A DNA stretch of 64,000 bases from Acholeplasma sp. CAG:878 (GCA_000432255.1 HF989914.1:11270-75269), one strand, 5' to 3'; counted from the stretch's first letter, positions 3,656 to 31,890 are shown. Notes: generated by a model not told the origin, from the letters alone. Made by a program: numbers and translations.

Positions 3656-3656
3656 T

Positions 3657-4421
3657 TCATTCCTCCAATAATTTTTTATTTAACAAACAATCTACTCCAT
3701 CAATTTTAATTTTATTCTCAAGAATTCCAATTATTACTTTTTCATATTCTTTTTCATTAATAATAACTTTATCTGCTTTAAAACATTTTATTAACCCTCT
3801 ACTAACACCAGTATAAGGTATAAAGTAATAATTAGCATCAATATTTATATCAATTAATAAAACTGCTTTTTTAGTAATTGGATCAACTAAATTATTGCCA
3901 GTATCTAAAAATCCTTTGCATTTTATTTCCTTTTTAGAAACATAAATAGTTACATCATAATAGTTATTATAATTGTGTTTTAACCAAATTCCTTGTTTTA
4001 TATACAAATATAATATTATCGGTGAGGATATAATTAAAAATACAAAATTAACCGATAACCCATTATTAATAAAAATCAATCCTTTTTGTTTATACGAAAA
4101 TGTTACATTTAAAAAGTACAAAAATCCTCCTAAAATCATACTTGTTGAATATAAATATAGTATATTTTTAAATGTATATTTCAAATCATAATATCCAAAA
4201 GTAATCAATACCATTAAAATACTTATAAATATTTTAAATATAAATAAAGTAAAAGTTGTAAATTCAAAAAACAAAAATAACATACTTAATCCACCTATAA
4301 AAGCTCCAAATATTATTCTTTTTATACTAGCATTTCTTTTTAAAACAATAGAAACAGTTAATAATAAAATAAAATCAAAGAAAAAATTCAAAAGCATAAT
4401 TATATCTATATATATTTTCAT
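3657..4421 (-). CDS. spoIIGA: Pro-sigma-E processing aspartic protease SpoIIGA
   Basis: MKIYIDIIMLLNFFFDFILLLTVSIVLKR aligns with the B. subtilis SpoIIGA N-terminus MKIYLDVIWLLNFCFDALLLLLTAFILKR. The protein is a multi-TM protein with the C-terminal FLDTGNNLVDP aspartyl-protease motif. The ORF-track start at 4478 is a TTG; the ATG at 4421 matches the homolog. Confidence 0.8.
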   Translation of the reverse strand: MKIYIDIIMLLNFFFDFILLLTVSIVLKRNASIKRIIFGAFIGGLSMLFLFFEFTTFTLFIFKIFISILMVLITFGYYDLKYTFKNILYLYSTSMILGGFLYFLNVTFSYKQKGLIFINNGLSVNFVFLIISSPIILYLYIKQGIWLKHNYNNYYDVTIYVSKKEIKCKGFLDTGNNLVDPITKKAVLLIDINIDANYYFIPYTGVSRGLIKCFKADKVIINEKEYEKVIIGILENKIKIDGVDCLLNKKLLEE

Positions 4422-4470
4422 AAACAAATTATACAAAAAATGATATAAATATTGTGTCGAAAGAAAGAAA
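4422..4470 (-). promoter_or_regulatory. Candidate spoIIG-type promoter: perfect TATAAT 6 nt before the spoIIGA ATG, with a Spo0A-box (TGTCGAA) over the -35 region
   Basis: Minus strand reads ...cTTTCGACAcaatatttatatcattttttgTATAATttgtttATG. The 0A-box consensus TGTCGAA is at plus 4455-4461 and the -10 hexamer at plus 4428-4433. No SD is present. Confidence 0.35.
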
Positions 4471-4491
4471 AAAAACAAGCTTTTTTAAGGC

Positions 4492-14772: not shown

Positions 14773-17148
14773 TCATTTTACAACTATATTTACTATTTTA
14801 TTTGGTATAACTATTTCTTTTACAATTGTTTTTCCTTCTAAATATTTTAAAACATTACTTAATTCTTTAGCACATTTTAACATTTCTTCATTAGAACTAT
14901 TTAAAGCAATTGTAGTAGTTCCTCTTACTTTACCATTTACTTGAACAGCAAGTTCATACACTTCTTCTTTTGCTTTTTCTTGTTCAAATGTTGGCCATTT
15001 TTCATATGCTATAGTATTATTATGCCCTAGTTTTTCCCATAATTCCTCTGTTATGAAAGGTATTACTGGATTTAACAATTTTAAGAAACCTTCAGCGTAT
15101 TCTTTTGGAAATATATCTTCTTTGTATACTGCATTTACAAAAATCATCATTTGACTTATAGCAGTATTAAAATTAAGTGTCTCATAATCTTCAGTTACCT
15201 TTTTAACTGTTTGATGATATATTTTTTCTAAATTTTTATTTTCTAAATCTTTTATATTTCCTTCAGTATACAATCTGTATATTCTTTCAATAAATCTATG
15301 AGCTCCATTAACACCATCACTATTCCATGGTTTATCTGCTTCAAGAGGTCCCATAAACATTTCATATAATCTTAATGTATCTGCACCATATTCTTTTACA
15401 ACATCATTAGGATTAACAACATACTCTGGATATCTTTTTCCCATTTTAATTCCATTAGAGCCTAATATCATTCCTTGATGAACTAATTTTTTAAATGGCT
15501 CTTTAACTGGAGATACTCCTTTATCATATAAATAGTTATTCCACATTCGTGAATATAGTAAGTGTCCAACAGCGTGTTCAGGACCACCAACATATAAATC
15601 AACTGGCATCCAATGTTTTAATAAATCTTTATCAGCTATTTCTTTATCGTTATTAGGGTCGATATATCTTAAGAAATACCAACTTGAACCAGCACTACCA
15701 GGCATTGTAGAAGTTTCTCTTTTTCCAAGAGGTGTATTTACCCAAGAAGTTGCTCTTTCAAGTGGTGAGGCACCATCCTTAGAAGGACTATAATTATCTA
15801 ACACAGGTAATACTAAAGGTAAGTCTTTATCATCTAATGCAATGATATTATCATTATTATGAATTACAGGTATTGGTTCTCCCCAATATCTTTGTCTAGC
15901 AAATATCCATTCTCTCAAACGATAATTTACTTTTTTATTACCTTTTTTATTTTCTTCTAGCCATTCTAGCATTTTATTTATAGCATCTTCTTTGTTTAGA
16001 CCATTTAAGAAACCAGAATTAATATGAATACCATCACCTATATAAGCGGAATTAGCTACATCTCCACCTTCGATTACAGGTATAATTTTTATGTTGAATT
16101 TTCTAGCAAACTCATAATCACGTTCATCATGAGCAGGAACAGCCATAATCGCACCAGTACCATAACTTGCTAAAACGTAATCAGATATCCAAATAGGAAT
16201 TTGTTCATTGTTAACAGGATTTATTGCATATGCTCCTGTAAAAACACCAGTTTTTTCTTTATTTAATTCTGTTCTTTCCAAATCAGATTTTGATGCACAT
16301 AATTTTTGATAATTAATTACCTCTTCTTTTTTATCTTCAGTTGTTATTTTTGAAACATATTCATGTTCAGGGGACAAAACACAATATGTTGCTCCAAACA
16401 ATGTATCGCATCTTGTTGTAAATACTGTAAATTCTAAATCATGATTAGCAATTTTAAACACTACATTAGCGCCAATAGATTTTCCAATCCAATTTCTTTG
16501 CATTTCTTTAGTTGACTCTGGCCAATCTATTTCTTCTAAACCACTTAGTAATCTTTCGGCATATTTAGGAATGTCAATTACCCATTGTTTCATATTTTTT
16601 CTTATTACTGGATAACCCCCTCTTTCACTTTTACCATCGATTACTTCATCATTAGCTAGTACAGTTCCAAGTTCAGGACACCAATTAACAGGCATATCTA
16701 TTTGTTTAGCTAAGCCATCATTAAATAATTGTTTAAAAATCCATTGAGTCCATTTATAATATTTTGGGTCACTTGTAGATACTTCTTTAGACCAATCATA
16801 AGAAAAACCCAACATTTTTAATTGTTCTTTAAATATTTCAATATTTTTTTCTGTAAATCCATTAGGATTTTTTCCAGTTTTAATAGCAAATTGTTCAGCT
16901 GGTAAACCAAAAGAATCAAATCCCATTGGGTGTAATACATTAAAACCTTGCATTCTTTTCATTCTTGATACAATATCAGTTGCTGTATACCCTTCTGGGT
17001 GTCCTGCATGTAATCCTACTCCTGATGGATAAGGAAACATATCTAAACAATAAAATTTTGGTTTACTAAAATCTTTTATATCTGTTCTAAAAGTATCGTT
17101 ATCTTCCCAATACTTTCTCCATTTTTTTTCTATTTCACTTGTATTCAT
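14773..17148 (-). CDS. leuS: Leucine--tRNA ligase
   Basis: 791 aa, [20 protein letters not shown] (HIGH region) and the LeuS editing-domain signature; lies 12 nt upstream of metG. Confidence 0.9.
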
Positions 17149-17500
17149 TCATTACACATCCTTTTTTTATATAATATTTTCCAATTAAACTATAACATAT
17201 TACTAATAGTGGTATTAGAGTTAAGAAACCAACTAATAGTTGTAAAACAAAATTTTTGACTAAATAAGTTGTCATAAAAGCAGTAGAAATTATGAACGCG
17301 TTAGAGAGCGCGATTACATTCATAAATTTAGTTATATTTATTTTATTTAAATCTAAATTAAACCTTTTGACAAAAAACATAACTTGATTGCTTTTTTTAA
17401 ATTTTTCTATTTTTGATTTTTGCAGGATTACCGTCGCGAGGTAAAATAAGTATATGATTGCAAAAGATATTAAATATATTATAAAATACATATATATCAC
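17135..17500 (-). CDS. Hypothetical small membrane protein (doubtful)
   Basis: 121-aa hydrophobic ORF overlapping the leuS start. In AT-rich DNA such ORFs arise by chance, so it could instead be the leuS 5' leader. Confidence 0.35.
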
Positions 17501-17814
17501 CTTTATTAATTATATTATAAATTTCCTTTAATTACAAGAAAAATATGGCAATCACTAAAAAATTTAAAACATTATCTTTTCATTGAATTACTATGATAAA
17601 GAACTTCACACATGTGTATGTATTCCAAAAGATATACAAATTACTAGCAAATTTGAAGAATGTAAACCAGGATATTGATGGTTATACGCTTAAAGGTTAA
17701 AATGCTATAAAAATAATTAACTTTTAACAAGAAATAAATTTCTTAATTCATGTTTTATATACAACAATCACATTTTTTCTCACCTCCTAATTCTTGTCGT
17801 ATATTATTTAATTT

Positions 17815-17895
17815 CAACCAAAAAAAGATTGAAATATGTGATAAAAGTATCTATTTCAATCTTTTAAAAAAATGAATGTTTAAACATTCATTTTT
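17815..17895 (-). terminator. Two tandem intrinsic terminators downstream of ppdK
   Basis: Minus strand: ATGAATGTTTAAACATTCAT followed by TTTTTTT, then AAGATTGAAATA...TATTTCAATCTT (12-bp stem) followed by TTTTT. Confidence 0.5.
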
Positions 17896-17939
17896 TTAGT
17901 TTTTTATATAATCATAGGATTTACAGTATTTTAAGTAAA

Positions 17940-20576
17940 TTACTTTCTATCCCCAGATTTGATTGCGGCTTGTGCGGCTGCTAATCTTGCAATCGGAACT
18001 CTATATGGTGAGCAAGAAACATAATTTAGTCCGATATTATGACAGAACTCTATGCTTGATGGCTCTCCACCATGTTCACCACAAATACCAAGCTTAATAT
18101 CTGGTCTAGTTTTTTTACCTTTTTCTACAGCCATTTTAACTAATTGTCCAACACCTACCTGATCTAATTTAGCAAATGGGTCAATTTCATAAATTCTATT
18201 TTGATAATATGAATCCAAGAACTTACCAGCATCATCTCTTGAGAAACCGAAGGTCATTTGTGTTAAGTCATTAGTTCCAAATGAGAAGAATTCTGCTTCT
18301 TTAGCAATTAAATCTGCTGTTAGAGCTGCTCTTGGTATTTCAATCATAGTACCAATATGATATTTAATATCTGAATTTTTTTCCTTTTTAACTTCTTCTG
18401 CAACTTTAACCACAATATCTTTAACAAACTTAAGTTCTTTTTCTTCTCCAACTAATGGAATCATAATTTCAGGAACAATATCATAACCTTCTTCTTCCTT
18501 AACTTCAATGGCAGCTTCCATTAAAGCTCTAGTTTGCATACAAGCTATTTCAGGATAAGTAACTGCTAATCTACAACCTCTATGTCCCATCATTGGATTA
18601 AATTCATGAAGTTCAGAGATTTTATTTTTTAAATGTTCTACTGTAACATTCATATCTTTAGCTAAAGCAATAATATCCTCTTCTAAAGTTGGTAAAAATT
18701 CATGTAGTGGTGGGTCTAGGTATCTAACTGTCATAGGAAGCTCTTTTAATTCTTTATACATAGCTTTAAAATCACCTTTTTGGAATGGTATTAATTCATT
18801 TAAAGCTGCCACTCTATCTTCTACTGTTTCAGATAAAATCATTTTTCTGATTTTAGGAATTCTATTTTCTTCAAAGAACATGTGTTCTGTTCTACATAAT
18901 CCAATTCCTTCTGCTCCTAGTTCAACTGCTTTTTTAGTATCACGAGGATTATCAGCATTAGTTCTTACTTTAAGTGTTCTATATTCATCAGCCCATGACA
19001 TAATTCTTCCAAAATCACCACTAACAGTTGCTTCTTTTGTTTCAATATCACCAGCATAAATTTTACCAGTATTACCATCTAGAGAAATATAATCACCTTC
19101 ATGGAAAGTAATTCCTCCTAAAGTAAATTCTTTAGCTTCTTCATTAATGTTAATAGCTCCACATCCAGCTACACAGCAAGTTCCCATACCACGAGCAACA
19201 ACAGCAGCATGTGATGTTCTTCCACCTCTTACAGTTAGAATACCTTGAGCTGCTACCATACCTTCGATATCTTCTGGTGTAGTTTCTAATCTAACTAAAA
19301 CTACTCTTTCACCCTTACCACCTTTACCTAACATTTTAGCTTCTTCGGCAGTAAACACTACTTTACCAGCAGCAGCACCTGGGCTTGCAGGAAGTCCCTC
19401 ACCAATACTTTTTGCTTCTTTTAAAGATTTTACATCAAATGTTGGATGAAGTAATTGATCTAAACTTTTAGCATCAATTCTTAAAACTGCTTCCTCTTTT
19501 GTAATCATTCCTTCATCTACTAAGTCACATGCTATTTTAATAGCGGCATGAGCAGTTCTTTTACCATTTCTAGTTTGTAAGAAATATAGTTTACCTTCTT
19601 CGATAGTAAATTCCATATCTTGCATATCTTTATAATGGTTTTCTAACTTATTAGCTAAAGTTATAAATTCATCATAGCATTCTGGTAAATCTTCTTTTAG
19701 TTTAGTAATAGGTTCTGGAGTTCTAACACCAGCAACTACATCCTCTCCTTGAGCATTAATTAAATATTCACCATAAATACCTTTTTCTCCTGTTGCAGGG
19801 TCTCTTGTAAATGCAACACCTGTTCCACTAGTTTCGCCCATATTACCAAATACCATTGATTGAACATTAACAGCCGTTCCCCAATCTCCTGGAATATCAT
19901 TCATTCTTCTATAAACGATTGCTCTTTGGTTGTTCCATGAACGGAAAACTGCTTTAACAGCACCCATCAATTGTTCTTTTGGATTTTGTGGGAATTCTTC
20001 CCCGTTCATATGGTCACTATAAACTTTTTTAAATCTTTTTACTAACTCTTTTAAATCATCAACAGTAAGTTCTGTATCATAACATACACCTTTTTCATTT
20101 TTTAATTCATCAATGATTTTTTCAAAGAAAGATTTATTTACTTCCATTACTACATCAGAATACATTTGAATAAATCTTCTATAAGAATCATAGGCAAATC
20201 TAGGATTGTTAGTTTTTTTTGCAAAGCCTTCAACTGCTACATCATTTAATCCTAAATTAAGAATTGTATCCATCATACCAGGCATACTCGCTCTAGCACC
20301 ACTTCTTACTGATACTAACAATGGATTTTCAGTATCCCCAAATTTTTTTCCTTGTAATTTTTCTAATTCTTCTAAAGCATCAAAAATTTGTGTTTCAATT
20401 TCTTTAGAAATTTCGCATCCATTGTCATAGTAATTGGTACAAGCTTCTGTTGTAATTGTAAATCCTTGAGGTATAGGTAATCCTAAATTAGTCATTTCGG
20501 CTAAGTTTGCTCCTTTACCACCAAGTAAATTACGCATATCTTTGTTACCTTCACTAAAGGCATAAACATATTTCAT
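17940..20576 (-). CDS. ppdK: Pyruvate, phosphate dikinase
   Basis: 878 aa with PEP-utilising enzyme motifs: ATP-grasp N-terminus, central phospho-His region (GGRTSHAAVVARGMG), TIM-barrel C-terminus. Confidence 0.9.
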   Translation of the reverse strand: MKYVYAFSEGNKDMRNLLGGKGANLAEMTNLGLPIPQGFTITTEACTNYYDNGCEISKEIETQIFDALEELEKLQGKKFGDTENPLLVSVRSGARASMPGMMDTILNLGLNDVAVEGFAKKTNNPRFAYDSYRRFIQMYSDVVMEVNKSFFEKIIDELKNEKGVCYDTELTVDDLKELVKRFKKVYSDHMNGEEFPQNPKEQLMGAVKAVFRSWNNQRAIVYRRMNDIPGDWGTAVNVQSMVFGNMGETSGTGVAFTRDPATGEKGIYGEYLINAQGEDVVAGVRTPEPITKLKEDLPECYDEFITLANKLENHYKDMQDMEFTIEEGKLYFLQTRNGKRTAHAAIKIACDLVDEGMITKEEAVLRIDAKSLDQLLHPTFDVKSLKEAKSIGEGLPASPGAAAGKVVFTAEEAKMLGKGGKGERVVLVRLETTPEDIEGMVAAQGILTVRGGRTSHAAVVARGMGTCCVAGCGAININEEAKEFTLGGITFHEGDYISLDGNTGKIYAGDIETKEATVSGDFGRIMSWADEYRTLKVRTNADNPRDTKKAVELGAEGIGLCRTEHMFFEENRIPKIRKMILSETVEDRVAALNELIPFQKGDFKAMYKELKELPMTVRYLDPPLHEFLPTLEEDIIALAKDMNVTVEHLKNKISELHEFNPMMGHRGCRLAVTYPEIACMQTRALMEAAIEVKEEEGYDIVPEIMIPLVGEEKELKFVKDIVVKVAEEVKKEKNSDIKYHIGTMIEIPRAALTADLIAKEAEFFSFGTNDLTQMTFGFSRDDAGKFLDSYYQNRIYEIDPFAKLDQVGVGQLVKMAVEKGKKTRPDIKLGICGEHGGEPSSIEFCHNIGLNYVSCSPYRVPIARLAAAQAAIKSGDRK

Positions 20577-20690
20577 ATTATTTCCTCCTTCTATTTTACT
20601 AGTTAATTATAACAAAAAAAGTTAATATTTTCAATTAACTTTTTCCTATTTTATCTATTTTTTTTAATTATATTAATGTATAAGTTTATT

Positions 20691-22088
20691 TTAACAATCT
20701 TTCATTTTTACCAAAGATAGTTCCCAACTTTCCATCGCATCGTAAACATCTAGGTATAACTCAAATGTTTCATTTAAATTAAGAAAAACTTCATTAGAAA
20801 GTTTGTTTCTATATTTTTCATAATCTCCTATTATACCTTCTTGATGTGGAATTGTTAATTTAATTCCATCTTTTGTTACTTCATTAACAATTATAGTGAT
20901 TTTACCCATAATCATTGGTTCATTAGTTATTACTTTATAATAGGTAATAATTGGTTGAACTTTTTGTTTTTCCAATTCTTCTGCTGTTCCATAACAACCA
21001 TGAAATGGAATATGTGTAAGTTTTATGTAATAATCATTATCTACTATATAATTAACTACATCTTTATTTGGAAAACCTTTGCTTATTATATCTTTTGCTT
21101 CCTCTGGATTTTCTCGCAAATATTTTAAAAATGTATATACACCTGTTGCTTTAAAATGAGGATTTAATTCTGCTATTTGCTTCGCTGTATACCCTTCTAT
21201 ATTAATAGCATTAGGTAGGGCATAAGTCTTTTTCATTAAATATAAAATAAACTCATTAAATATATCATCATATTTAGATAAATCATTAAATAACACTTTA
21301 GAAACATTATCGCTTTTTCCTATTTCATTTTTAAAATAATTAATAAGCAATTTAGAAAAGAAAGAATCGTTCACTTTATTTTCTATTATTTTCTCTAGCG
21401 GTAATTCCATTTTTATTTTGTTTTCATAATTTGATACTTTTTTAAAAAGTATTTCGTATTCTGATAACAAATCAATAAAATCATTCCAATTCTCAGGCTC
21501 TGCACCATTGCCATTTATTTGTTTATTTAATCCATCTATGTTAATTTTTAGTTTCCACGCTATACTTTTATCTCCAGAATATTTTGTATTCCAATCAGCA
21601 ATAATTGTTTTTAATCTATTACAAAATTCATCAAACTTCGAAAGAGAAATCGAAACATTTAAATCATTAATATATGATGTTTTACTATTATCTAAATATA
21701 ATAAAACACATTTATTATTCGTTTTTGTTAAAGATAAGCAATAATTTTCGACAACTACATTAATACTTTCTTTTTTTACTTTATCTTGTGAAAAATCATA
21801 GTTAGGAACACCATAAACCTTTTGTGGTACATTATCCTCTGGTTCTATAACATACTTTTCCTTATTTTCATTTTTTCTTTTTTCTTGAAGCCAATTTGGT
21901 ACTCCGTATACTTCTCTTGGCAAATTATCTTCAGATTCTATAGTATATTTTTCTTTAATTTCATCTTGTTTTGCCCTTGCTTCTTCTTCCCATTGCTTTC
22001 TAATTACATCAGGAATACCATAAACTATTTGAGGCCTATTATCTTCTGCCTCAATATTATATTTATCTTTTTTATTAAATAATCCCAT
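20691..22088 (-). CDS. Hypothetical protein with three N-terminal tandem repeats (KYxIExEDNxPxxVYGVPN) and a C-terminal domain of about 360 aa with no recognised fold
   Basis: Repeats: KYNIEAEDNRPQIVYGIPDV / KYTIESEDNLPREVYGVPNW / KYVIEPEDNVPQKVYGVPNY. The likely start is ATG 22088 (MGLFNKK), preceded by a GGAGGAAAATAAA SD; the first ATG at 22103 is inside that SD. It is the last gene of the island operon. Confidence 0.6.
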   Translation of the reverse strand: MGLFNKKDKYNIEAEDNRPQIVYGIPDVIRKQWEEEARAKQDEIKEKYTIESEDNLPREVYGVPNWLQEKRKNENKEKYVIEPEDNVPQKVYGVPNYDFSQDKVKKESINVVVENYCLSLTKTNNKCVLLYLDNSKTSYINDLNVSISLSKFDEFCNRLKTIIADWNTKYSGDKSIAWKLKINIDGLNKQINGNGAEPENWNDFIDLLSEYEILFKKVSNYENKIKMELPLEKIIENKVNDSFFSKLLINYFKNEIGKSDNVSKVLFNDLSKYDDIFNEFILYLMKKTYALPNAINIEGYTAKQIAELNPHFKATGVYTFLKYLRENPEEAKDIISKGFPNKDVVNYIVDNDYYIKLTHIPFHGCYGTAEELEKQKVQPIITYYKVITNEPMIMGKITIIVNEVTKDGIKLTIPHQEGIIGDYEKYRNKLSNEVFLNLNETFELYLDVYDAMESWELSLVKMKDC

Positions 22089-22130
22089 TTTATTTTCCTC
22101 CATATTATCAATTATATATTTTTCAACATA

Positions 22131-23225
22131 TTAATCATCACCATATACATCTTTTATGCAAAAATTAGGTTTTCTCTCATCAAAATTAAATGTATGAAAT
22201 GAATCTCCTAAGCAATATTTCCAATTTGAACATTTTTCACATTTACTACACTTTGTTCTGTTTTCGGTTCTAAAAATTTTAAATCTATTTTCCCATACAT
22301 CAACAAAATTATCAGTTTTGATATTTCCTTGAATAAATTCTTTTCTTCTTTCTACATCTGGACATATAAATATATCACCGTTGCTTAAAATGCTTGCTAC
22401 ATATAACCCAGCAGTACATATAAAATAAGTATCTCGTATTTCTTTTTCTAAATTTATTCCTAAATAATGACTACAACCATATTCAACATTCATTAAATTT
22501 TCTTCTCTTTTTTCTTTTATAAAATTGAATAAATATTTATAATCTTCTTTATCTAATAAAATATCGTTGTTGTTTTTAGCTCTTCCTATTGGGTCTACAT
22601 TTATAACTCTCCATGAAATAACATTTAACTCTTTCATCAAATTATATACATCTTCTAATTCATGAATATTTTTTTTGTTAGCAACTGTTGTAACTTGAAC
22701 AATCTTAATACTTGGTACTTGTTGTAATTTTTTTATGTTATTAATAATTTTATCAAAACTATTCGGTACTTTTCTAAAACTTTCATGAGTTTCTTTTAAA
22801 CCATCTAAACTAATAGATATAGTTTCCATATTAGTATCAATCATCTTATTAATAATTTCATCATTTATTAACATTCCATTTGTTGTCATGCCCCATCTAA
22901 ATCCAAGTTCACAAGCATACTTCATAAGAGTAAATAAGTCTTTTCTAACTAATGGTTCTCCTCCAGTAACATTTAAAAGTATTTCATTAGCATTATATCT
23001 TTCAGAAATATCTCTTAATGTTCTTTTTAAATCTTCTATACTTATTTCATCTTTTAAAATTGTATCACCGCAACTACTACCACAGTGTTCGCATCTTGCA
23101 TTACATCTTAATGTCACTTCTAAAAATAAATCTTTTAAAATTGGTTTTTCATAGAGTTTTTTTCTGTAATCAGCTAATTTATCCATGTTATCAATTTTAA
23201 TTTTTTTTATATATTCTTCATTCAT
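22131..23225 (-). CDS. Radical SAM enzyme with C-terminal SPASM domain (peptide/protein-modifying maturase type)
   Basis: CNARCEHCG (CX3CX2C), GGEPL, and a C-terminal Cys cluster C...C...CSKCEKCSNWKYC (SPASM, 7 Cys). AGGTG SD. Confidence 0.85.
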   Translation of the reverse strand: MNEEYIKKIKIDNMDKLADYRKKLYEKPILKDLFLEVTLRCNARCEHCGSSCGDTILKDEISIEDLKRTLRDISERYNANEILLNVTGGEPLVRKDLFTLMKYACELGFRWGMTTNGMLINDEIINKMIDTNMETISISLDGLKETHESFRKVPNSFDKIINNIKKLQQVPSIKIVQVTTVANKKNIHELEDVYNLMKELNVISWRVINVDPIGRAKNNNDILLDKEDYKYLFNFIKEKREENLMNVEYGCSHYLGINLEKEIRDTYFICTAGLYVASILSNGDIFICPDVERRKEFIQGNIKTDNFVDVWENRFKIFRTENRTKCSKCEKCSNWKYCLGDSFHTFNFDERKPNFCIKDVYGDD

Positions 23226-23236
23226 ATTTACACCTA

Positions 23237-24685
23237 TTATTTTTCATTCAGTATTTGAATAGACTTTTTTCTTTCTCCAGCATACCAATAAATTAAATGC
23301 TTTATACTTTTTATATCATCTAAATCATTTGTATTATTATATTGTTCTATATTTCTATTCACTATAGCACTTAAAATAGTCCCATCTTCTTGTATATCAA
23401 CTATATATAAGCAAATTCCTGTCCAACTTCTATATATGTAAAACTTATTATTTTCATAAAATGCAAACCAATGGTCTTCCATTTCTTTTGGAATATGTCC
23501 TTTTTTTAATTTGGTTAAATTTTCTTTCGTAAGTTTTAAATCTAATTTAATTTTTTTTGTTTCATTTGGCATATCAAGAATTTTCCAACTTTTTCTAGTT
23601 GCTATTTCATCTTCTTCGTATAAATATTTATCATAATCGTTTAATTTGTTAATAAATTTATTTATTAATTCAGATACATAATCTTTTTTTTGAATTACTT
23701 TTAACCATTCTTGTGGTATTTCATCAAAACCATAGATTAAACCTGCTAAACCACCAGTTAAAGCTCCAATAGTATCTGTATCATCACCGAGATTAACTGC
23801 TTTTAGTAAAGCATCTTTATAATTGTTTGTCGTTAAAATGGTCCACATAACTGCTTCTAAGGTATCAACAATATAGCCACTTGACTTTATTTCTTTTTCA
23901 CCTAAATTACTAATGTCATCTACTAAAATCCTTTTATATATATTTAAAGTAATTTCTTTGTCTCCTTTTAAAACATCACAATTATTAAACCATTTTTTTA
24001 GTAAAATATAAGCATCTTTTGGATTTATACCGTCTAATAAGTATTCTATATATTTTGAATAAATAAAACATCCAATTTTACTATATATATGTGAATGAGT
24101 TAAAGAAGAACCAGTATAAATAAAATTTTTAAATAAATTATCGTCTAAAATTAACATATTACCATAAATTGCTAATGGTAAAATACGCATCAATGAACCA
24201 TTTCCATTTGAACTAATATCATCATATCCACAATTAATTAATTTTTCTAATTTTGAATCATTAATGATATTTTCATTGTATTTTTCTTTTTTGTTTTTGT
24301 AATTTGTTAAAGAATAATTAGTAGAATTTCCTATATCAAAAACATTATTAAATGGCGTGTATTTACTATTAATTTTCCAATTTAAAAATGCATCTAATAT
24401 ATTTTTAAACATTGTATAAGTATTCATATCATCAATCGGTGTATTTACAATTGCATCCATGGTTGCTAATACCATAGAAGTATCATCACTCCAAGTTCCT
24501 TTCGGTTGATTATGCGTTCCATATTCTTCCATATCTTTTACTTTTTTTCTTTTTAGTATATTTCTACTTTGAAACTCAATTGGAACACCTAGAGCATCGC
24601 CTACAACAAATCCCATAATACTTGCTTTTATTCGATTTGATTTATTTAAATTTTTAGTTAAATTAGATTTATTACTAAGTATCAT
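23237..24685 (-). CDS. ADP-ribosylglycohydrolase (ARH/DraG family) with an extra C-terminal domain of about 140 aa
   Basis: N-terminal IMGFVVGDALGVPIEF and C-terminal GDDTDTIGALTGGLAGLIYGFDEIPQEW ARH motifs. Residues from about 345 to the end form an additional domain with no recognised homology. Confidence 0.85.
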   Translation of the reverse strand: MILSNKSNLTKNLNKSNRIKASIMGFVVGDALGVPIEFQSRNILKRKKVKDMEEYGTHNQPKGTWSDDTSMVLATMDAIVNTPIDDMNTYTMFKNILDAFLNWKINSKYTPFNNVFDIGNSTNYSLTNYKNKKEKYNENIINDSKLEKLINCGYDDISSNGNGSLMRILPLAIYGNMLILDDNLFKNFIYTGSSLTHSHIYSKIGCFIYSKYIEYLLDGINPKDAYILLKKWFNNCDVLKGDKEITLNIYKRILVDDISNLGEKEIKSSGYIVDTLEAVMWTILTTNNYKDALLKAVNLGDDTDTIGALTGGLAGLIYGFDEIPQEWLKVIQKKDYVSELINKFINKLNDYDKYLYEEDEIATRKSWKILDMPNETKKIKLDLKLTKENLTKLKKGHIPKEMEDHWFAFYENNKFYIYRSWTGICLYIVDIQEDGTILSAIVNRNIEQYNNTNDLDDIKSIKHLIYWYAGERKKSIQILNEK

Positions 24686-24696
24686 TATAACACATC

Positions 24697-26013
24697 CTAT
24701 ATTCTAAATTGTTGAAAAGAAGATTTGCAAACATTTAATTTTTCTGCTTCATGTATTTTTTCTTCTATATCTAATTGTTCTAATTTCTTATCTATTTCTT
24801 TTATTAAATTATCAATTTTAGTTGGTTCATTTGATAATTCAGTTTCAAATTGATTTCCAAAGTTTTCTTTTTTTAAACGAACAAACTGTTCAAGATTAAA
24901 CATTTTAATTTGCTTTTTTTCTAATACTGGCTTATCTATGTTCAATTTTTCAACTGGTATATATAATGAATCTACTTTTTCTTCATATTCTTGATTATTA
25001 ATAAATAATTTTATTGTTTTAGAAATTATTACTAAGTCACTTAGTTTAGTTATATAGTTTCCATATTTTTCAATCAAATCTTCGTAAGAACGTGTACCTA
25101 TTTCAAATCTAATATTTCTTGAAATTCCAGAACTTAACATATCACTTAATTCATTAACCATTTCTAATACATCAATATTATCAAGTACAAAATTAAATTT
25201 ATTATATTTTTTTGAGTTTATTAATATTGTAAATAATTGTTCAATAAACATTGTTGCAACATTATTTATATATCTATTTTCATCTTTGGCAATTAAGAAA
25301 ATAGCAGTCGGTTTAGTCATAATATCATCATAACTAAATGTAGTTTTGTTAAGTAAAACACTTAACATTTCTCTACTTACGTAAGTTCTTAATTTTTCTC
25401 TTGCAACTGAAACTATACTTCCTTTTGTTTCTTTTGGAGCAAGAAAAGTAGACGCCGCAAAAATATAAGATTGTGAACATGGATTTTTCAATTTAAAATA
25501 TTGAGTTATATAATCGCTAGTAGCATAATTGTTATTTATTCCATTAAACATTAAATTAACACTGTTTAAATTAATTTCTTCTTCCTTGCCATCCTCAAAT
25601 AATCCAAGCACAATACCAGTATAAAAATCTGATGCCGTATTTGACCAAAATGGGTCTATTGTAGAATTTTCGTAAAACATTATTTTTGCTTGTTTTTCTA
25701 TATAATCTATAGCTTCATCAATCATACCTTTCTTATATAAATTATAAGGATATTCTAAAGGATTCCAACCATCACTTTTATTTAAATCTCTTAAATTTAA
25801 TATAATAATATTATAGTTTTTATTCTTTAAATCATTATAATATTTATTTATGTATTCCTCTTTTGAATCTAGTATTAATAAACTTTGTCCATCATTAATC
25901 GCTTCCCCAACTAATGGAAACAATACATTTGATGTTTTACCAGATGAAATATCACCTGATACAATTAAATTTTTTTTACTATTAAGCATTTCTTTTAATA
26001 TTTCTTTTTTCAT
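24697..26013 (-). CDS. VirD4/TraG/TrwB-family (type IV coupling protein-like) P-loop ATPase core, without the N-terminal transmembrane segment
   Basis: Walker A LIVSGDISSGKTSNVLFPLV, then LLILDSKEEY, GWNPL and DPFWSNTASDFYTGIVLGL, which match the T4SS-DNA_transf / TrwB hallmark series (GxGKT...DpKgE...NPL...dpfW.nsA). Only 438 aa and no predicted TM helices. Confidence 0.7.
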   Translation of the reverse strand: MKKEILKEMLNSKKNLIVSGDISSGKTSNVLFPLVGEAINDGQSLLILDSKEEYINKYYNDLKNKNYNIIILNLRDLNKSDGWNPLEYPYNLYKKGMIDEAIDYIEKQAKIMFYENSTIDPFWSNTASDFYTGIVLGLFEDGKEEEINLNSVNLMFNGINNNYATSDYITQYFKLKNPCSQSYIFAASTFLAPKETKGSIVSVAREKLRTYVSREMLSVLLNKTTFSYDDIMTKPTAIFLIAKDENRYINNVATMFIEQLFTILINSKKYNKFNFVLDNIDVLEMVNELSDMLSSGISRNIRFEIGTRSYEDLIEKYGNYITKLSDLVIISKTIKLFINNQEYEEKVDSLYIPVEKLNIDKPVLEKKQIKMFNLEQFVRLKKENFGNQFETELSNEPTKIDNLIKEIDKKLEQLDIEEKIHEAEKLNVCKSSFQQFRI

Positions 26014-26389
26014 ACTTCCTCCTCAACACCTTTTCTTCAGTTGTTTCTTGTAATTCATTTATTTTTTTAAGAGCGCTTTGTTGTTGTAATATTTCTAATC
26101 TTTTGTATTTTAAACTTAACAAATATATTCTTTCTTCAATTTCTTTTTTCTTTTTTTCTAATATCTCATTATTCAAATGATTTTTATAAGTAGCAATTTC
26201 TTCTAAAGTAAAATCTAGAGATTTAAGTAATTTAATTAATTCGCATTCAATAACATTTTCATCACTATAATACCTATAACCAGTAAAATTATCTATTTGA
26301 CTTGGTTCTAGAACTCCATATTGTGCATAAAACCTTAAGGTTCTAACAGGAATACCCACGATTTTTGAAAAATCGCCAATCTTATACAT
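25982..26389 (-). CDS. MerR-family transcriptional regulator
   Basis: MYKIGDFSKIVGIPVRTLRFYAQYGVLEPS (MerR HTH), followed by a coiled-coil. The start at ATG 26389 has an AAAGGAG SD. The 3' end overlaps the ATPase gene start by 32 nt. Confidence 0.8.
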   Translation of the reverse strand: MYKIGDFSKIVGIPVRTLRFYAQYGVLEPSQIDNFTGYRYYSDENVIECELIKLLKSLDFTLEEIATYKNHLNNEILEKKKKEIEERIYLLSLKYKRLEILQQQSALKKINELQETTEEKVLRRKYEKRNIKRNA

Positions 26390-26700
26390 ATTATCTACTC
26401 CTTTTAATACCAACTATTCCTCCTTTCAAATAAAGTTTAACATTTCAGTCATATGGAGAGTCAATACCTTTTTGCATTTCATAACAAAAGTTTGATTATT
26501 ATAGTTTTAACAAAGTATTTTATTTTTTATATTATATTTACTTATTAACATTATAACATGTTTTTTCATATTTTGTTTAAATATTAAAATAATCAATAAT
26601 TTATTTTAAATATATAACAAAAAAATTAACTCAATTATACTGAATTAATTTTTTATAAATTTTGTTTCACATCATTTACAAATATACACTTTTTACTATT

Positions 26701-27549
26701 TTATTTATTTTTCATAAAACATTCATAAACGTTATTTAATAACATTGCAACTGTCATAGGACCAACTCCTCCTGGAACTGGTGAATAATTTAAAATTCCA
26801 TCCTTTTTTACATCTCCATATAATTTTCCTTGAAATCTTGTTATTCCAACATCAACAATAATAGCATCTTCCTTAACCATATCTTTTGTAATTAAATCCT
26901 TAACACCAGTTGCTGATACTAATATATCAGCATCTTTAGTATATTCTCTTAAGTTTTTGGTATATGAATGACATATTGTAACTGTTGCATTTTCTTGTAA
27001 AAATAGTTGTCCTAATGGTTTACTGACTAAATTACTTCTTCCTATGATTACAACATTACAATCTAATTTAACATTATAATATTTCAATAATTTTATTACT
27101 CCTAGGGAAGTACATGGAACTAAATTATTATTACCCTTAAATAAATTACCCATATTAGTTGTAGTTAATCCATCAACGTCTTTATTAGGACTTATTAGAT
27201 CAAGTAGCCTATTTTCATTCAAATAACTTGGCAATGGGAGTTGAATTAGTATACCAGATACACTGTTATCATTATTTAATTCGATTATTTTGTTTGCTAA
27301 TTCTTCTTCTTTAACATTATCATACTTTAAATGTTTAAAAGATATTCCTACTTCTTCACAAGCCTTTCTTTTTGAGTTAACATAAACGTTACTTGCTTCA
27401 TCATTTCCAACTTGAATTACTACTAATTTGGGATTAATATTATTTTTGATAATATTATCTTTTATATTTTGCTTTATTTCAAGACTCACTTTTTTTCCAT
27501 CTAAAATCAAAATATCACTCCCCAAATTTATATTTTGAAGTAATTTCAT
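26701..27549 (-). CDS. folD: Bifunctional methylenetetrahydrofolate dehydrogenase/cyclohydrolase
   Basis: [12 protein letters not shown]..., [13 protein letters not shown]. The N-terminal start is uncertain (35-nt overlap with the glyA 3' end). Confidence 0.85.
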
Positions 27550-28726
27550 AAACTCGTTTAATTAAGTTTTCTCTACTATCACTCTTAGTTAAAGTATCAT
27601 AAATAATTAAACCTATATTTTTAAAATCATCTTCTTTCAATCCTCTTGTTGTCATAGCAGGACTACCTATTCTAATACCACTTGTAATAGTCGGTGAGGT
27701 CTTATCATAAGGGATAGAATTCTTATTTACTGTAATATTTACTTCATCTAATAATTCTTCAGCCTCTTTTCCTGTTAAATTTAATGACGTTACATCGACT
27801 AAAATTAAATGGTTATCAGTTCCATTAGATACTATTCTTAATCCCTTTTCTTGTAAGGTATCTGATAAAGCTTTAATATTCTTTAATACTTGTTTTTGGT
27901 ATAAAACAAATTCTGGTTTTAAAGCTTCGAAAAAACATTGGGCTTTAGCGGCTATAACATGCATTAAAGGTCCACCTTGAATACCTGGAAAAACAGTTTT
28001 ATTTATTTTTTTTATTATTTCTTCACTATTGGTTAGAATTAATCCTCCTCTTGGACCTCTTAGGGTTTTATGAGTAGTTGTTGTCACAACATCAGCATAA
28101 GGAATTGGCGATGGATGAAGTTCCGTAGCTACCAATCCTGCTATATGAGCCATATCAACCCAAAAATATGCATCAACTTTTTTAGCAATCTTGCTAATCC
28201 TTTCAAAGTCGATTATTCTTGAATAAGCACTTGCGCCTGCTATAATCATTTTAGGTCGTTCTAATAAAGCTAATCTTTCTAGTTCATCATAATCAATTAC
28301 TTCTGTTTCTTTGGAAACATCGTAACTTACAATATTATACTCTAAACCACTAAAGTTAATCCTATGTCCATGGGTCAAATGTCCACCATGACTTAAATTC
28401 ATTCCCATTACTTTATCATTTGGTTCGAGTAACGCTTTATATACTGCCATATTGGCATTACTTCCTGAATGTGGTTGGACATTTGCATAATTACATTTAA
28501 ACAACTTAGTTGCATAAGAAATCGCTAAATTTTCAATTGTATCAACATTAACACAACCACCATAATAACGCTTACTAGGGTAACCTTCAGCATATTTATT
28601 AGTAAAAATACTTCCTTGTAGTTCTAGAATTGCCTTACTTACATAGTTTTCTGATGCGATTAATTCAATATTATCTTGTTGCCTTTTTTTTTCTTTTTCT
28701 AATGCTTCTTTTATTTTTTCATCCAT
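27515..28726 (-). CDS. glyA: Serine hydroxymethyltransferase
   Basis: [28 protein letters not shown]-lysine motif. The start at ATG 28726 (MDEKIKE) has an AGGTGA SD; the ORF-track GTG at 28735 is within that SD. Confidence 0.9.
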
Positions 28727-28823
28727 TTTAATCACCTTTCTTGAATACTTATAATCAGAATTATACCACTAATTACCAAATTTTCAAATAAAATTGACTA
28801 CAAAAACATAACATAAACTCTTT

Positions 28824-30047
28824 TTATATTAAATCCTTTTTATTATTCAAATATTCTTCTTTTGTAAGACCATACATAACTAAATCTTCTACACCACCAT
28901 AGTAATAAAACATTGCCTGCTTTCTAGTTCCTTCATACTTTAATCCAATTTTTTCCATTATTCTTAATGTTCCTTTATTATCTTTCGCACCACATGATTC
29001 AATTCTATTTAAATCTAGTTCATCAAAAGCAAATTCTAAAATTTTTTTAGATGCCTCTGTAACATAACCTTTACCCCATTCATCTTCCCTTAACCAATAA
29101 TCAATTCCAGCAGTTTTGGCTTTTTCATCATGAATATTTAAATATATAGTTCCAAGTATTTTATTGTCTTCTTTTTTTACTATTGTCCATCTATAATAGT
29201 CTAAATTGTCGTAATTAGATTCACTAAAATATTTTCTGTTTTTTTCTAAATCATTACCTAATTTAGTAGTTCCTAAATACCTTCTTAAATTTGGATTTAG
29301 TTGAATATAGAAAAATTCATCTATATCATCTTTAGTAGTTCTTCTATAAATAAGCCTTTCGCTTTCTAAAAAAATGGTTCCTTTGTGTTTAATTGGAATG
29401 TAATCATGTCCATTTAAATCAATTTTATAGTTTTCAACTAAATTGTGTTCACCAACATATAAAATATCATTATTTTCAATCCTAACAAATGAATCATTAG
29501 GCAAAATAGTTATAGGTACATAATTACTTACCTCAAAAACTTCTTTTAAATAATCTACATTGCTCCAAACTAAATGAGGATATATGTTTATATCTACAAG
29601 TCCTAATCCATCGTATTTTAGCACTCTATCTTCGTAAGTTTCATCTATGTATACTACTTTATTTGATTGATTAATTGCCCCAGCACTAACACCTATTACT
29701 ATTTTTTTGTTTTTAATTTTATTTATTAAAGAATATTCTTTAATAAAATTCATTTGTAATATAGGACTACCACCCATTAAAAATACTATATCTGCTTCAT
29801 CAATTAAAGTTTTAGCTTCTAAATTCTTTTTCCTATTATCGATTAAATTTGAAGAATTAAAAGTAATTCCTATTTTTTTAAAATTTTCTATAAAATTGTT
29901 AAATTTTAAATCATTTTTTTCATAAGCATCTGCTACAGATGATATGAATACAATCTTTGAATTGTTTTTAATATCCTTCTTTAAATATTTTCCTTGATTT
30001 TCATTAAATCCATCATTAGATATTGCACTAAATAAATAATTAATCAT
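28824..30047 (-). CDS. Fusion protein: N-terminal S51 peptidase (PepE-like) domain + C-terminal GNAT N-acetyltransferase (RimJ/RimL-like) domain
   Basis: N-terminal half: GGSPILQMNF...IVIGVSAGAINQ (S51 Ser nucleophile context). C-terminal half: GNAT motifs (RIESCGAKDNKGTLRIMEKIGLKYEG). Confidence 0.7.
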   Translation of the reverse strand: MINYLFSAISNDGFNENQGKYLKKDIKNNSKIVFISSVADAYEKNDLKFNNFIENFKKIGITFNSSNLIDNRKKNLEAKTLIDEADIVFLMGGSPILQMNFIKEYSLINKIKNKKIVIGVSAGAINQSNKVVYIDETYEDRVLKYDGLGLVDINIYPHLVWSNVDYLKEVFEVSNYVPITILPNDSFVRIENNDILYVGEHNLVENYKIDLNGHDYIPIKHKGTIFLESERLIYRRTTKDDIDEFFYIQLNPNLRRYLGTTKLGNDLEKNRKYFSESNYDNLDYYRWTIVKKEDNKILGTIYLNIHDEKAKTAGIDYWLREDEWGKGYVTEASKKILEFAFDELDLNRIESCGAKDNKGTLRIMEKIGLKYEGTRKQAMFYYYGGVEDLVMYGLTKEEYLNNKKDLI

Positions 30048-30093
30048 AATAATACCTCCAGTTTAATTATATCAAAAATAAAGAAAAAAACAA

Positions 30094-30273
30094 CTATTCA
30101 GCTGTTTTAATTACTTCTTTATTCTTGTAAGTTCCACATTTTGGACATACTCTGTGTGGTTTTTTAACTTCTCCACATTTTGGACATGTAGTAGTTGTAT
30201 TTTCACTTATTTTGTAGTGAGTACGACGTTTACGTCCACGAGTCTTACTAACTTTTCTAAATGGTACTGCCAT
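30094..30273 (-). CDS. rpmF: 50S ribosomal protein L32
   Basis: Minus-strand translation [58 protein letters not shown]. It is not in the ORF track because it is short. yceD lies upstream, as is typical. Confidence 0.85.
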
Positions 30274-30288
30274 TTATAACACCTCTTT

Positions 30289-30753
30289 CTATAATAATTC
30301 TTTAAGTTTTTCTAATTCTGGATTAACTCTTTTTTCTTCTTCAGTAATAAGTTTCCATCCATCACCACTTGTTTTAGTAGCTTTCTTTCCACTTACAACC
30401 TTCAAAGGAACTTCCATTAATATATTTTCCCATATAATTGGAAAAATATCAAGTGTATTTGTTAAATTTTGACCAATTTCTTGTAAAATTTCCTCTAAAT
30501 CACCTTCAACATGAGTATTCAATGGAACACTTACTGGTTCTAGAGTTAAGGAACAAGGTAATATAAATTCTCCTTTAATATCTATAGATATGTAATATCT
30601 TCCATAATTATAACTAATATTTCCTTTAATATTAACGTCATCTAAACTAATGATATCTGTATTTTTAAGTTCATCAGTTTTAAATGAATAATTAAAATCA
30701 ATTGGAAGAGACTCTAAAACACCACTTCTAAGTTTTGTAATATCAATAATCAT
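30289..30753 (-). CDS. yceD: YceD/DUF177 family protein
   Basis: 154 aa, conserved yceD-rpmF pairing; acidic C-terminus with a Cys-containing motif. Confidence 0.8.
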   Translation of the reverse strand: MIIDITKLRSGVLESLPIDFNYSFKTDELKNTDIISLDDVNIKGNISYNYGRYYISIDIKGEFILPCSLTLEPVSVPLNTHVEGDLEEILQEIGQNLTNTLDIFPIIWENILMEVPLKVVSGKKATKTSGDGWKLITEEEKRVNPELEKLKELL

Positions 30754-30828
30754 CTAATCACCTAGAACATTATACATTAAAATCTTTGAAAAGTAAACAA
30801 TTAATGATATAATTAAGTTGGTGAGTTT

Positions 30829-31890
30829 ATGGTAGGAATTATAGCAGAATATAATCCATTTCACAATGGACATTTAAAACAAATAAATATGGTAAAAGAA
30901 ATGTTCCCAAATGATATTATTACTATAGTCTTAGCAGGTAATTTTTTAAATAGAGGCGATGTTAGTGTTATAGACAAATGGGATAAAACTAAACTAGCAC
31001 TAGAATACGGCGTTGATATAGTTGTAGAATTACCTTTTGTTTTTGCTACTCAAGCTTCAGATTATTATGCTTATGGGGGAGTCAAAACATTAAATTTATT
31101 AAAAGCTGATTATTTAGTTTTTGGAAGTGAATCAAATGATTTAAATAACCTAATTAAAATAGCAAATACTAATATAAATAATGAAGAATTAAAAAATAAT
31201 ATAAAAAAAGGATACAATTATCCTAAAAGTATTGCCTGTTCTATTAATTCTAATATTGATAGTCCAAATGATTTATTAGGAATAAGTTATATAAAAGCAA
31301 TTAATAAAATAAATAGCAATATAAAACCTATAACAATTAAAAGAACAAATAACTACCATAGTTTAGATATTAATAGTAATATAATTAGTGCATCAGCGAT
31401 TAGAAATTTAGTAAAAAATAACAAAAATATTGATAAATATGTTCCAAGTAAAACTTTAAAATATATTAAAAATAGAAGTTTAAATGATTATTTCTACATT
31501 TTAAAATATAAAATCATGAATGAAGATATATCTAAATATGTAGACATTAAAATAAATAATAAACTTAAAAAAGTAATAAATGATTGTAATAATATAGATG
31601 AATTGATTAGTAAAGTTAAAACTAAAAACTATAGTTATAATTATATAAAAAGAAGTTTGGTTCATATTTTATGTGAATTTGAAACTAAACATTATGATGT
31701 TTCTTATGTAAGGGTATTAGGATTTAATAATAAAGGTCAAGAATACTTAAAAAGTATTAAAAAAGATGTCAAATTAATTACAAATTATTGTAACATACTA
31801 GAATATGAATTGAAAGTTAGCAACATATATAATATGTTTGACAAAGAATACATCAATAAAGAGTTAAATAAACCAATAAAACTGGATTAA
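30829..31890 (+). CDS. tmcAL: tRNA(Met) cytidine acetate ligase (TmcAL/YlbM, nucleotidyltransferase fold)
   Basis: N-terminal MVGIIAEYNPFHNGHLKQI, the HIGH-like nucleotidyltransferase motif typical of YlbM/TmcAL. Confidence 0.75.
   Translation: MVGIIAEYNPFHNGHLKQINMVKEMFPNDIITIVLAGNFLNRGDVSVIDKWDKTKLALEYGVDIVVELPFVFATQASDYYAYGGVKTLNLLKADYLVFGSESNDLNNLIKIANTNINNEELKNNIKKGYNYPKSIACSINSNIDSPNDLLGISYIKAINKINSNIKPITIKRTNNYHSLDINSNIISASAIRNLVKNNKNIDKYVPSKTLKYIKNRSLNDYFYILKYKIMNEDISKYVDIKINNKLKKVINDCNNIDELISKVKTKNYSYNYIKRSLVHILCEFETKHYDVSYVRVLGFNNKGQEYLKSIKKDVKLITNYCNILEYELKVSNIYNMFDKEYINKELNKPIKLD

Follow-up and report, generated by a model that had tools for sequence, protein, structure and literature searches.

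The block and its promoter

A compact block of five genes was analysed in a 64,000-nucleotide stretch of DNA of Acholeplasma sp. CAG:878 (GCA_000432255.1, HF989914.1:11270-75269); the whole stretch is called the window, and positions are counted from its first letter. The genes encode a MerR regulator, a VirD4/TraG-like ATPase, an ADP-ribosylhydrolase (ARH), a radical SAM (rSAM)/SPASM enzyme and a protein with a repeated tyrosine motif (Rep). The block is best read as an rSAM protein/peptide maturase system with unprecedented partners; the five-gene operon was previously undescribed and is specific to uncultured gut Bacilli of low guanine-plus-cytosine (GC) content. Its features are as follows (aa, amino acids).

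26434..26464, minus strand: MerR-type promoter; -35 TTGACT (26459..26464), 19-bp spacer CTCCATATGACTGAAATGT, -10 TAAACT (26434..26439)
25982..26389, minus strand: merR; ATG start, alternative TTG at 26413; 135 aa; Pfam MerR_1, 7.7e-17
24697..26013, minus strand: VirD4/TraG-like P-loop protein (ATPase), 438 aa; Pfam T4SS-DNA_transf 8.8e-19, TrwB_AAD_bind 7.5e-9
25933..25956, minus strand: Walker A motif of the ATPase, GDISSGKT
25171..25197, minus strand: Walker-B position of the ATPase, FNFVLDNID (aa 273-281); D-N invariant
23237..24685, minus strand: ARH gene, 482 aa; Pfam ADP_ribosyl_GH 1.2e-59 over aa 22-326
23642..24634, minus strand: ARH catalytic domain, aa 18-348; from Pfam and the nearest solved structures
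23273..23614, minus strand: 'eraser-associated' domain, ARH aa ~358-471; ~110 aa; motif G-x-IP-x-x-MED-x-WF ... RSWTG-x-C
22131..23225, minus strand: rSAM/SPASM enzyme, 364 aa; Pfam Radical_SAM 4.3e-22, SPASM 1.3e-8
23082..23105, minus strand: CX3CX2C (CNARCEHC, aa 41-48), rSAM cluster motif
22158..22475, minus strand: Cys-rich SPASM half of the rSAM enzyme
20691..22088, minus strand: Rep, 465 aa; alternative ATG at 22103; no Pfam, NCBIfam or PADLOC family
22008..22064, 21894..21950 and 21801..21857, minus strand: Rep motif copies 1-3 (aa 9-27, 47-65, 78-96), together spanning 21801..22064
20706..21773, minus strand: folded part of Rep; Mago-like alpha/beta domain aa 106-223, helical domain 231-337, FHA/SMAD-MH2-like beta-sandwich 353-461 (AlphaFold2, confident)

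All five open reading frames (ORFs) were found in the ORF listing of the window, co-directional and tightly packed, at the coordinates given in the original prediction and between the flanks that it had named, folD-glyA and ppdK (ppdK: TIGR01828, 1459 bits; glyA: NF000586, 620 bits; folD: FolD models as the top matches). merR and the ATPase gene overlap by 32 bp, and the gaps that follow are of 11, 11 and 27–42 bp. The calls of MerR, VirD4-like, ARH and rSAM/SPASM domains agreed with Pfam. No TM-like (transmembrane) segment was found in any of the five proteins (maximum 19-residue Kyte-Doolittle mean 0.6–1.4), and no relaxase or type IV secretion system (T4SS) gene among the window ORFs listed at 17000..31000 or among the genes and Pfam matches called in those related loci that were inspected; the ATPase is indeed without a membrane anchor, and no such gene was seen near it. 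Around the block the window held no integrase or transposase gene and, as candidates for flanking repeats or att-like sites, AT-rich chance matches only; GC content was 23–25% (about 24%) in the block vs 23–35% in the flanks, likewise as predicted. Inside the block, prediction gave no terminator-like site on the coding (minus) strand, and an Rfam search of 17000..29000 gave zero matches.

The merR promoter, in the form TATTGACT, 19-bp spacer and TAnnnT, was present upstream of merR in 20/20 loci compared, including loci without rSAM-Rep. A promoter with a 19-bp spacer and a dyad is a hallmark of MerR-type activation; the spacer dyad reads GCAGTcaACTGC or GCAGTCGACTGC in most related loci and is degenerate in the window. 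Two conserved Shine–Dalgarno (SD)-like elements, AGGAGGA and then AAAGGAGTAGAT, were seen between the -10 element and the merR ATG (window 26390..26433, and the corresponding place in 19 loci). In the window, the upstream TTG start at 26413 could be served by the first of them, and the SD AAAGGAG precedes the ATG.

The merR product (PF13411, 61.6 bits) is 58–80% identical in related loci. It shares with MerR-family activators the N-terminal MerR helix-turn-helix (HTH), the coiled coil and the TTGACT-19 bp-TAnnnT promoter, and differs from them in its length of only 135 aa, in a gene that overlaps the ATPase gene, and in that no effector-binding domain or metal-binding Cys was recognisable in it (a single Cys is present). 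Models of the metal- and drug-sensing subfamilies (MerR, CueR, ZntR, SoxR) scored at most 53 bits vs cut-offs of 117–450. The predicted overlap at the head of the operon is real and, in related loci, constant, which suggests that the regulator may receive its signal input from the ATPase.

Recurrence and composite nature of the block

Related loci were collected in a Rep-anchored scan of reference genomes (17 loci, mostly from metagenome-assembled genomes of uncultured 'Bacilli'; several were short contigs with other bin labels) and in an ATPase-anchored scan of metagenomes (70 loci); once the window proteins had been mapped onto all of them, 47 locus types could be told apart. In 30/47 types, which lie in different genomic contexts, rSAM-Rep comes after the ATPase gene as it does in the window, with order and orientation kept and with 11–50-bp gaps. 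The exact five-gene order of the window was found in 7/47 types, and an adjacent ARH gene in 14/47 (seven between ATPase and rSAM genes, four directly after Rep, three upstream). Conservation of the five genes, which the original prediction had set out for checking, is thus borne out as a recurring order and not as one fixed unit. Two human gut metagenome contigs (OJMM01000009.1 and OJMO01000018.1; L027, L028) were identical to the window across glyA-folD, the five genes and ppdK.

No folD/glyA adjacency was found among the non-identical rSAM-Rep loci. In a lineage with a ppdK ~69% identical to that of the window (L049-L055, L057, L059; e.g. L049 7616..12597), MerR-ATPase is followed by rpsP, a KH-domain gene and ppdK, and genes for rSAM, Rep and ARH are absent; the MerR-ATPase/ppdK neighbourhood therefore seems to predate the rSAM-Rep-ARH content of the window. 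MerR-ATPase pairs that stand alone elsewhere lie ahead of dacA-like, rluB, rlmN, prpC and prkC genes, or of dus and a gene for an RDD protein; locus L025 holds only the rSAM enzyme and a Rep-like protein. The block is therefore composite, made up of two modules (MerR-ATPase and rSAM-Rep) and of an ARH that is optional and varies in position, and the single island inserted in the folD-ppdK interval, as originally proposed, is not upheld.

The window locus is a minimal version of loci that elsewhere bear large accessory-protein arrays. In the larger loci (15–20 kb), multi-domain proteins of as much as 1231 aa are encoded in arrays; accessory genes there code for further ARHs, a phosphoesterase of the calcineurin-like type, His_Phos_1, a zincin-like protein, DUF4272+TPR and DUF6508. 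For ten accessory proteins taken as representatives, PADLOC gave no match and NCBIfam a single one, below threshold. Some of the larger loci hold HTH_36 proteins, transposases or a distant integrase. In L001 two large genes for SLFN-like/AAA helicases, and one for DUF2290, immediately precede the locus (556..5325), which lies downstream of them in a defence-island-like setting. In L017 (7009..9494), L048 (2760..3835) and L056 (9344..10420) the rSAM and/or ATPase genes were seen as partial overlapping tblastn fragments, and rSAM identity falls to 53–55% in L017 and L056; the fragmented genes suggest decay of the system in some lineages.

Outside the block, upstream of glyA, a 407-aa ORF (28824..30047) has a C-terminal half that looks GNAT-type acetyltransferase-like by eye; it gave no NCBIfam match at E<=1e-10.

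Properties of the encoded proteins

rSAM/SPASM enzyme. The enzyme passes the Pfam cut-offs (PF04055, 79.5 bits, cut-off 29.5; PF13186, 35.5 bits, cut-off 21.5) and has 11 invariant Cys (C41, C45, C48, C52, C251, C270, C288, C329, C332, C338, C356), seven of them C-terminal. Its identity across loci is 79–93%, vs 24–80% for the fast-evolving Rep, 42–73% for the ATPase and 58–80% for MerR. The best match was CteB (5wgg, E=2e-22); Foldseek neighbours were SuiB, SkfB, CteB and anSME, and the nearest solved relatives by sequence and structure taken together (CteB, SuiB, SkfB, anSME, PqqE, EpeE, ChlB) are all peptide- or protein-modifying. Among NCBIfam equivalogs it stays under every cut-off (best TIGR04133, rSAM_w_lipo, 317.2 vs 425 bits); the PlpX-type TIGR04103 gave 97.5 bits (cut-off 725), below the AhbD, NirJ2, MftC and WgkB models. 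The PADLOC match was generic (pVip, 90 bits), and viperin-like nucleotide chemistry was rejected, since the SPASM domain is complete and the score (88.9 vs 180) lay under the threshold. With the maturases CteB, SuiB, SkfB, anSME and ChlB the system shares CX3CX2C, the Cys-rich SPASM half and a neighbouring protein with a conserved motif in a disordered segment; it differs by having no N-terminal RiPP recognition element (RRE; RiPP, peptide made on the ribosome and modified after translation), protease or exporter, and by a presumed substrate that is a large multi-domain protein instead of a leader-core peptide. The window enzyme itself ends in ...CIKDVYGDD (22131..22145), which contains a V-Y-G, and the L026 ortholog in ...CIKDILKEE; this V-Y-G is not conserved in orthologs and is probably coincidental.

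Rep and its motif. Three copies of a repeat were found in the window Rep, as had been reported from the sequence; they are not tandem 26-aa units, as described there, and follow a motif of ~19 aa, K-Y-x-I-x-x-E-D-N-x-P-x-x-V-Y-G-[IV]-P-[DN], with copies spaced 38 and 31 aa. Across loci the motif is K-Y-D-I-x-P-E-D-N-x-P-Q-x-V-Y-G-[IV]-P-[DN], with 1–4 copies per ORF; the residues Y, N, P, Y-G and P do not vary among 42 distinct units. Among all ORFs of 23 loci it was restricted to the gene directly 3' of the rSAM gene (21/21 motif-bearing ORFs). Residues 1-102 of Rep, including all three motifs, are predicted to be disordered (AlphaFold2; predicted local distance difference test, pLDDT, <50). 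The structure prediction called for in the original prediction placed an FHA/SMAD-MH2-like beta-sandwich at the C-terminal end of the protein; no enzyme fold was detected in the model, no viral structural relative was found, and no phage sequence matched.

About 110 Rep homologs were collected; they have no Pfam domain, most are of 630–800 aa, and the window Rep is a shortened form of the family, its 465-aa cluster at 99% identity comprising 68 member sequences. In the long homologs (up to 1231 aa) the repeats are internal. The long homologs have an extra N-terminal domain that is fused instead to the N-terminus of the enzyme in 514–520-aa rSAM variants (BLASTP E=1e-14, 8e-9). Two giant proteins of the Rep clusters, of 1138 and 1231 aa (L008 13109..16525; L014 6173..9868), carry DUF4272+TPR or a Lar-like zinc ribbon besides regions without assignment, which suggests modular domain shuffling around a conserved core.

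Because the motif occurs only 3' of the rSAM gene, rSAM-Rep is the deepest conserved pair, and a domain is swapped between the two proteins, the Rep repeats are strongly favoured as the substrate of the rSAM enzyme, an idea already put forward for the window. By analogy, the modification could consist in a cross-link or cyclophane centred on Tyr, or in the excision of tyramine at V-Y-G in the manner of a splicease: tyramine spliceases target x-Y-G (PMC11414181, PMC11626197), and the loose cyclophane motif is aromatic-X-X (PMC12912966), with which both motif tyrosines, each within Y-x-[IV], are compatible. With the spliceases (PlpX, RhaX) and spliceotides the system shares an rSAM enzyme and a repeatable x-Y-G motif, V-Y-G being invariant in the 42 units; spliceases are able to modify proteins, and their activator element, which can sit on enzyme or substrate, is paralleled by the placement of the Rep N-terminal domain on some rSAM orthologs (PMC11414181). 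Here, in contrast, there is no Nif11/NHLP-type leader, and by the TIGR04103 score the enzyme is no closer to them than to other SPASM families.

ATPase. Walker A, in the form GDxxSGK[ST], is conserved in the family (13 members), and in 13/13 members the residues at the Walker-B position are L-D-N-[IF]-D, with Asn in place of Glu, which suggests slow or no hydrolysis. The protein begins at the P-loop region and has no N-terminal TM anchor (maximum 19-residue hydropathy 1.25). Its score against NF045973 (conju_CD1115, VirD4-like) was 129.5 bits, under the cut-off of 250, and TraG-D_C was sub-threshold (13.3 bits vs 22); a gut family 24% identical to it does match TraG-D_C. Identity is 25–27% to plasmid proteins of the CD1115 family and 22.6% to proteins of two Listeria phages, and no relative in the PDB was found by profile search. 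A 35%-identical homolog is placed among glycosyltransferase, ruvX and yceG genes, and more distant homologs are located among housekeeping genes. Type IV coupling proteins (T4CP; TrwB, VirD4, TraG) and the CD1115 family share with it the P-loop NTPase, the T4SS-DNA_transf and TrwB_AAD_bind homology and Walker A; the present protein differs in lacking a TM anchor, a TraG-D_C match above cut-off and relaxase or T4SS genes, in having D-N and not D-E at Walker B, and in its chromosomal, often housekeeping, context. Since membrane anchor, T4SS partners and Walker-B glutamate are lost, the protein would work in the cytoplasm as a nucleotide-dependent switch or as a ring that engages substrates, and not as a conjugative coupling protein.

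ARH and eraser-associated domain. The ARH scored 202.8 bits with PF03747 (cut-off 26.2); its nearest solved structures are Listeria Lmo0067 (8za7, 9e-63) and Tri1 (6dre, 4e-33), and the metal-binding motifs GDALG, WSDDTS and GDDTDT are kept in alignment with both. It was below the equivalog cut-offs of Tri1 (NF041672, 170.9 vs 490 bits) and DraG (TIGR02662, 121.9 vs 337 bits). The full ARH fold with its metal-binding motifs is shared with Tri1, Lmo0067 and DraG; an extra C-terminal domain of ~110 aa and the absence of a cognate ADP-ribosyltransferase (ART) nearby set the present protein apart.

This C-terminal extension, noticed earlier in the sequence, is a genuine domain. A word-index search with it returned 2 matches only, and a full HMMER scan was needed, which gave 1,634 representative proteins at E<=1e-3 and 553 at E<=1e-10, mostly stand-alone proteins of 120–160 aa. 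Neither the window extension nor a stand-alone member (P0239) had a Pfam match, and a profile search gave no PDB relative; the domain is widespread and looks like a family by itself that has not been described. Within the top 150 it was fused to ARH (8), Macro (8), NUDIX (7), NADAR (6), PARG (1), DSP-PTPase 'SAK' (2) and HIRAN (2); fused copies thus occur preferentially on ADP-ribose erasers (ARH, Macro, NUDIX, NADAR and PARG), with which the domain is associated. It is also fused to the C-terminus of a full-length ATPase ortholog (P0382; 53% identity, E=2e-152), whose locus has MerR-ATPase followed by housekeeping genes, and to Rep C-termini in L008/L009, L026 and L040/L041. Since it is found fused to each of the three, ARH, ATPase and Rep are linked by it. 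Three stand-alone copies were in housekeeping contexts with no toxin nearby; in this small sample a role as an immunity domain against ART toxins was unsupported.

Interpretation and relation to known systems

The reading that we favour, tentatively and at somewhat less than an even chance, is that of a MerR-controlled composite operon in which the rSAM enzyme modifies Rep, with a functional tie to the reversal of ADP-ribosylation. The MerR promoter would drive the whole operon as a single unit, and the VirD4-like NTPase would serve, with MerR, as a regulatory front end, either as a switch or as a substrate-engaging ring. The rSAM/SPASM enzyme would act as a protein maturase and place a radical-mediated modification on each Rep motif. 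Rep would be the modified scaffold or adaptor, a role proposed because only interaction-type folds (Mago-like, helical, FHA-like) are seen in it. The ARH would strip ADP-ribose from a macromolecular target and might be recruited to the same assembly by the eraser-associated domain, which elsewhere is carried by the ATPase or Rep. The overall role is most likely related to stress or conflict: coping with an ADP-ribosylating attack, or regulated ADP-ribosylation signalling. The more specific proposal of an unrecognised gut-Bacilli system, in which rSAM modification of a Tyr motif is coupled to a VirD4-derived NTPase and to erasers via the ~110-aa domain, is on the doubtful side; if right, it would amount to machinery of a new class, for conflict or signalling, and to a new post-translational modification of protein. 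A precedent for ADP-ribosylation meeting rSAM peptide chemistry on the same substrate is the mic (minviopeptin) cluster; unlike the present block it has an ART (writer) and not an ARH (eraser), a short precursor and an alpha-ketoglutarate oxygenase, and it is without MerR and T4CP-like ATPase (PMC12912966).

Several observations weigh against this reading. MerR-ATPase without rSAM-Rep was found in about 4 genuine locus types (L032, L046, the L049 group, L097), in housekeeping surroundings, and the rSAM enzyme without the ATPase in 4 types (L022-L025); because of these occurrences, the modules appear able to function independently. ARH is absent from 33/47 types, and the window holds no ADP-ribosyltransferase, protease, exporter or recognisable effector. 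The window Rep is without the swapped N-terminal domain, an RRE-like N-terminal domain is absent from the 364-aa enzyme (the CteB alignment begins after CteB residue 80), and rSAM homologs at 63–66% identity have neighbours without the motif. An AlphaFold2 pseudo-fusion of the rSAM enzyme, the native 8-residue spacer and Rep 1-113, run with an rSAM-only multiple sequence alignment, a single-sequence peptide and without Fe-S clusters and SAM, gave pLDDT 25–50 for the repeats and no predicted docking. The modification chemistry is inferred in its entirety.

No described system had been matched to the block in the original prediction, and none was found: searches of PADLOC, NCBIfam and the literature (including that on TIGR04133 and Lmo0067) gave no publication or curated model of this gene combination. 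PADLOC-DB v2 returned generic matches only (rSAM to pVip, MerR HTH to mad1) and none for ATPase, ARH and Rep, and a known anti-phage defence system was rejected on these grounds. A phage or plasmid origin was likewise rejected, Rep having no phage match and the ATPase only the low identities to phage and plasmid proteins given above.

Among the alternatives, a fortuitous or only loose linkage of independent functions is unlikely; the parts would be a lineage-specific chromosomal MerR-ATPase pair whose own role might concern DNA or stress, an orphan immunity-type ARH that removes ADP-ribose, and a separate rSAM-Rep pair for protein modification that tends to settle at a permissive site downstream of the ATPase gene. 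The separability of the modules speaks for it: MerR-T4CP stands alone beside rpsP/KH/ppdK, dacA-like/rluB/rlmN/prpC/prkC or dus/RDD genes, rSAM-Rep stands alone in L025, ARH varies in position and is often absent, and distant ATPase homologs lie amid housekeeping genes. It is opposed by the shared order, orientation and short gaps in 30/47 locus types, by the one conserved promoter at the head of the block with no terminator-like minus-strand site predicted behind it, and by the small domain fused to ARH, ATPase or Rep in different loci, a pattern not easily accounted for unless the parts are physically or functionally coupled. A new defence against phages or mobile elements, with the NTPase as sensor of infection, Rep and accessory proteins as diversifying arrays of sensors or effectors and the ARH controlling an ADP-ribosylation effector or signal, has a small share of the probability. 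It draws on the variable genomic location, on the fast-evolving multi-domain arrays and accessory hydrolases of the larger loci, on the vicinity of SLFN-like helicases and DUF2290, transposases or integrases to some loci, and on the place of the eraser-associated domain in the NAD+/ADP-ribose conflict toolkit (PMC9503650). However, PADLOC gave nothing beyond generic rSAM/HTH matches for core or accessory proteins; no nuclease, TIR, SIR2, ART, pore or other effector domain was recognisable, the folds of Rep are of scaffold type only, the conservation of the rSAM enzyme is unusually strong for a defence component, and the ATPase clade is frequently found amid housekeeping genes. The defence or toxin-like role offered in the original prediction is thus unproven, with no effector or toxin domain found.

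A RiPP cluster in which Rep is a multi-core precursor, its repeats being modified, excised and released, whether as bioactive peptides or a cofactor, as in the PQQ, mycofactocin, spliceotide and triceptide pathways, is improbable. The rSAM/SPASM enzyme does lie beside a protein with 1–4 invariant Tyr motifs, x-Y-G is the splicease target (PMC11414181, PMC11626197), Y-x-[IV] fits aromatic-X-X (PMC12912966), and the structural neighbours of the enzyme are RiPP maturases; yet the window shows no protease or exporter and no leader-type architecture, the 'precursor' would be a cytoplasmic multi-domain protein of 465–1231 aa with folded conserved domains and, in long homologs, internal repeats, and TIGR04103, at 97.5 bits vs 725, scores lower than several other SPASM families. 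Very improbable is the remnant of a decayed conjugative or integrative element of which a coupling protein and cargo survive. Of the relatives of the ATPase that have a name, the nearest are indeed CD1115-family VirD4-like proteins on conjugative Firmicutes plasmids, and HTH_36 proteins, transposases or a distant integrase occur in some larger loci; against this, identity to the plasmid proteins is only 25–27%, relaxase, VirB4, integrase and att-like repeats are missing from the window, the five ORFs are intact, with many invariant columns consistent with purifying selection, the block is identical in two independent gut contigs and its Rep belongs to a 68-member cluster at 99%, and the promoter is conserved across all loci compared.

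The hosts are abundant uncultured human-gut Bacilli with small genomes, whose lineage-specific biology is mostly unknown. If the composite operon acts as we propose, it would be a natural case of an rSAM/SPASM enzyme that acts on a repeated Tyr motif of a large cytoplasmic protein; to our knowledge, few cases of such modification exist beyond anSME, QhpD and engineered spliceases. Should the inference hold for the ATPase, this fold would have a new functional context, in an offshoot of the coupling-protein family that is chromosomal, lacks the membrane anchor, varies at Walker B and is always paired with MerR; the eraser-associated domain, which had no Pfam match, would give a new handle on the reversal of bacterial ADP-ribosylation.

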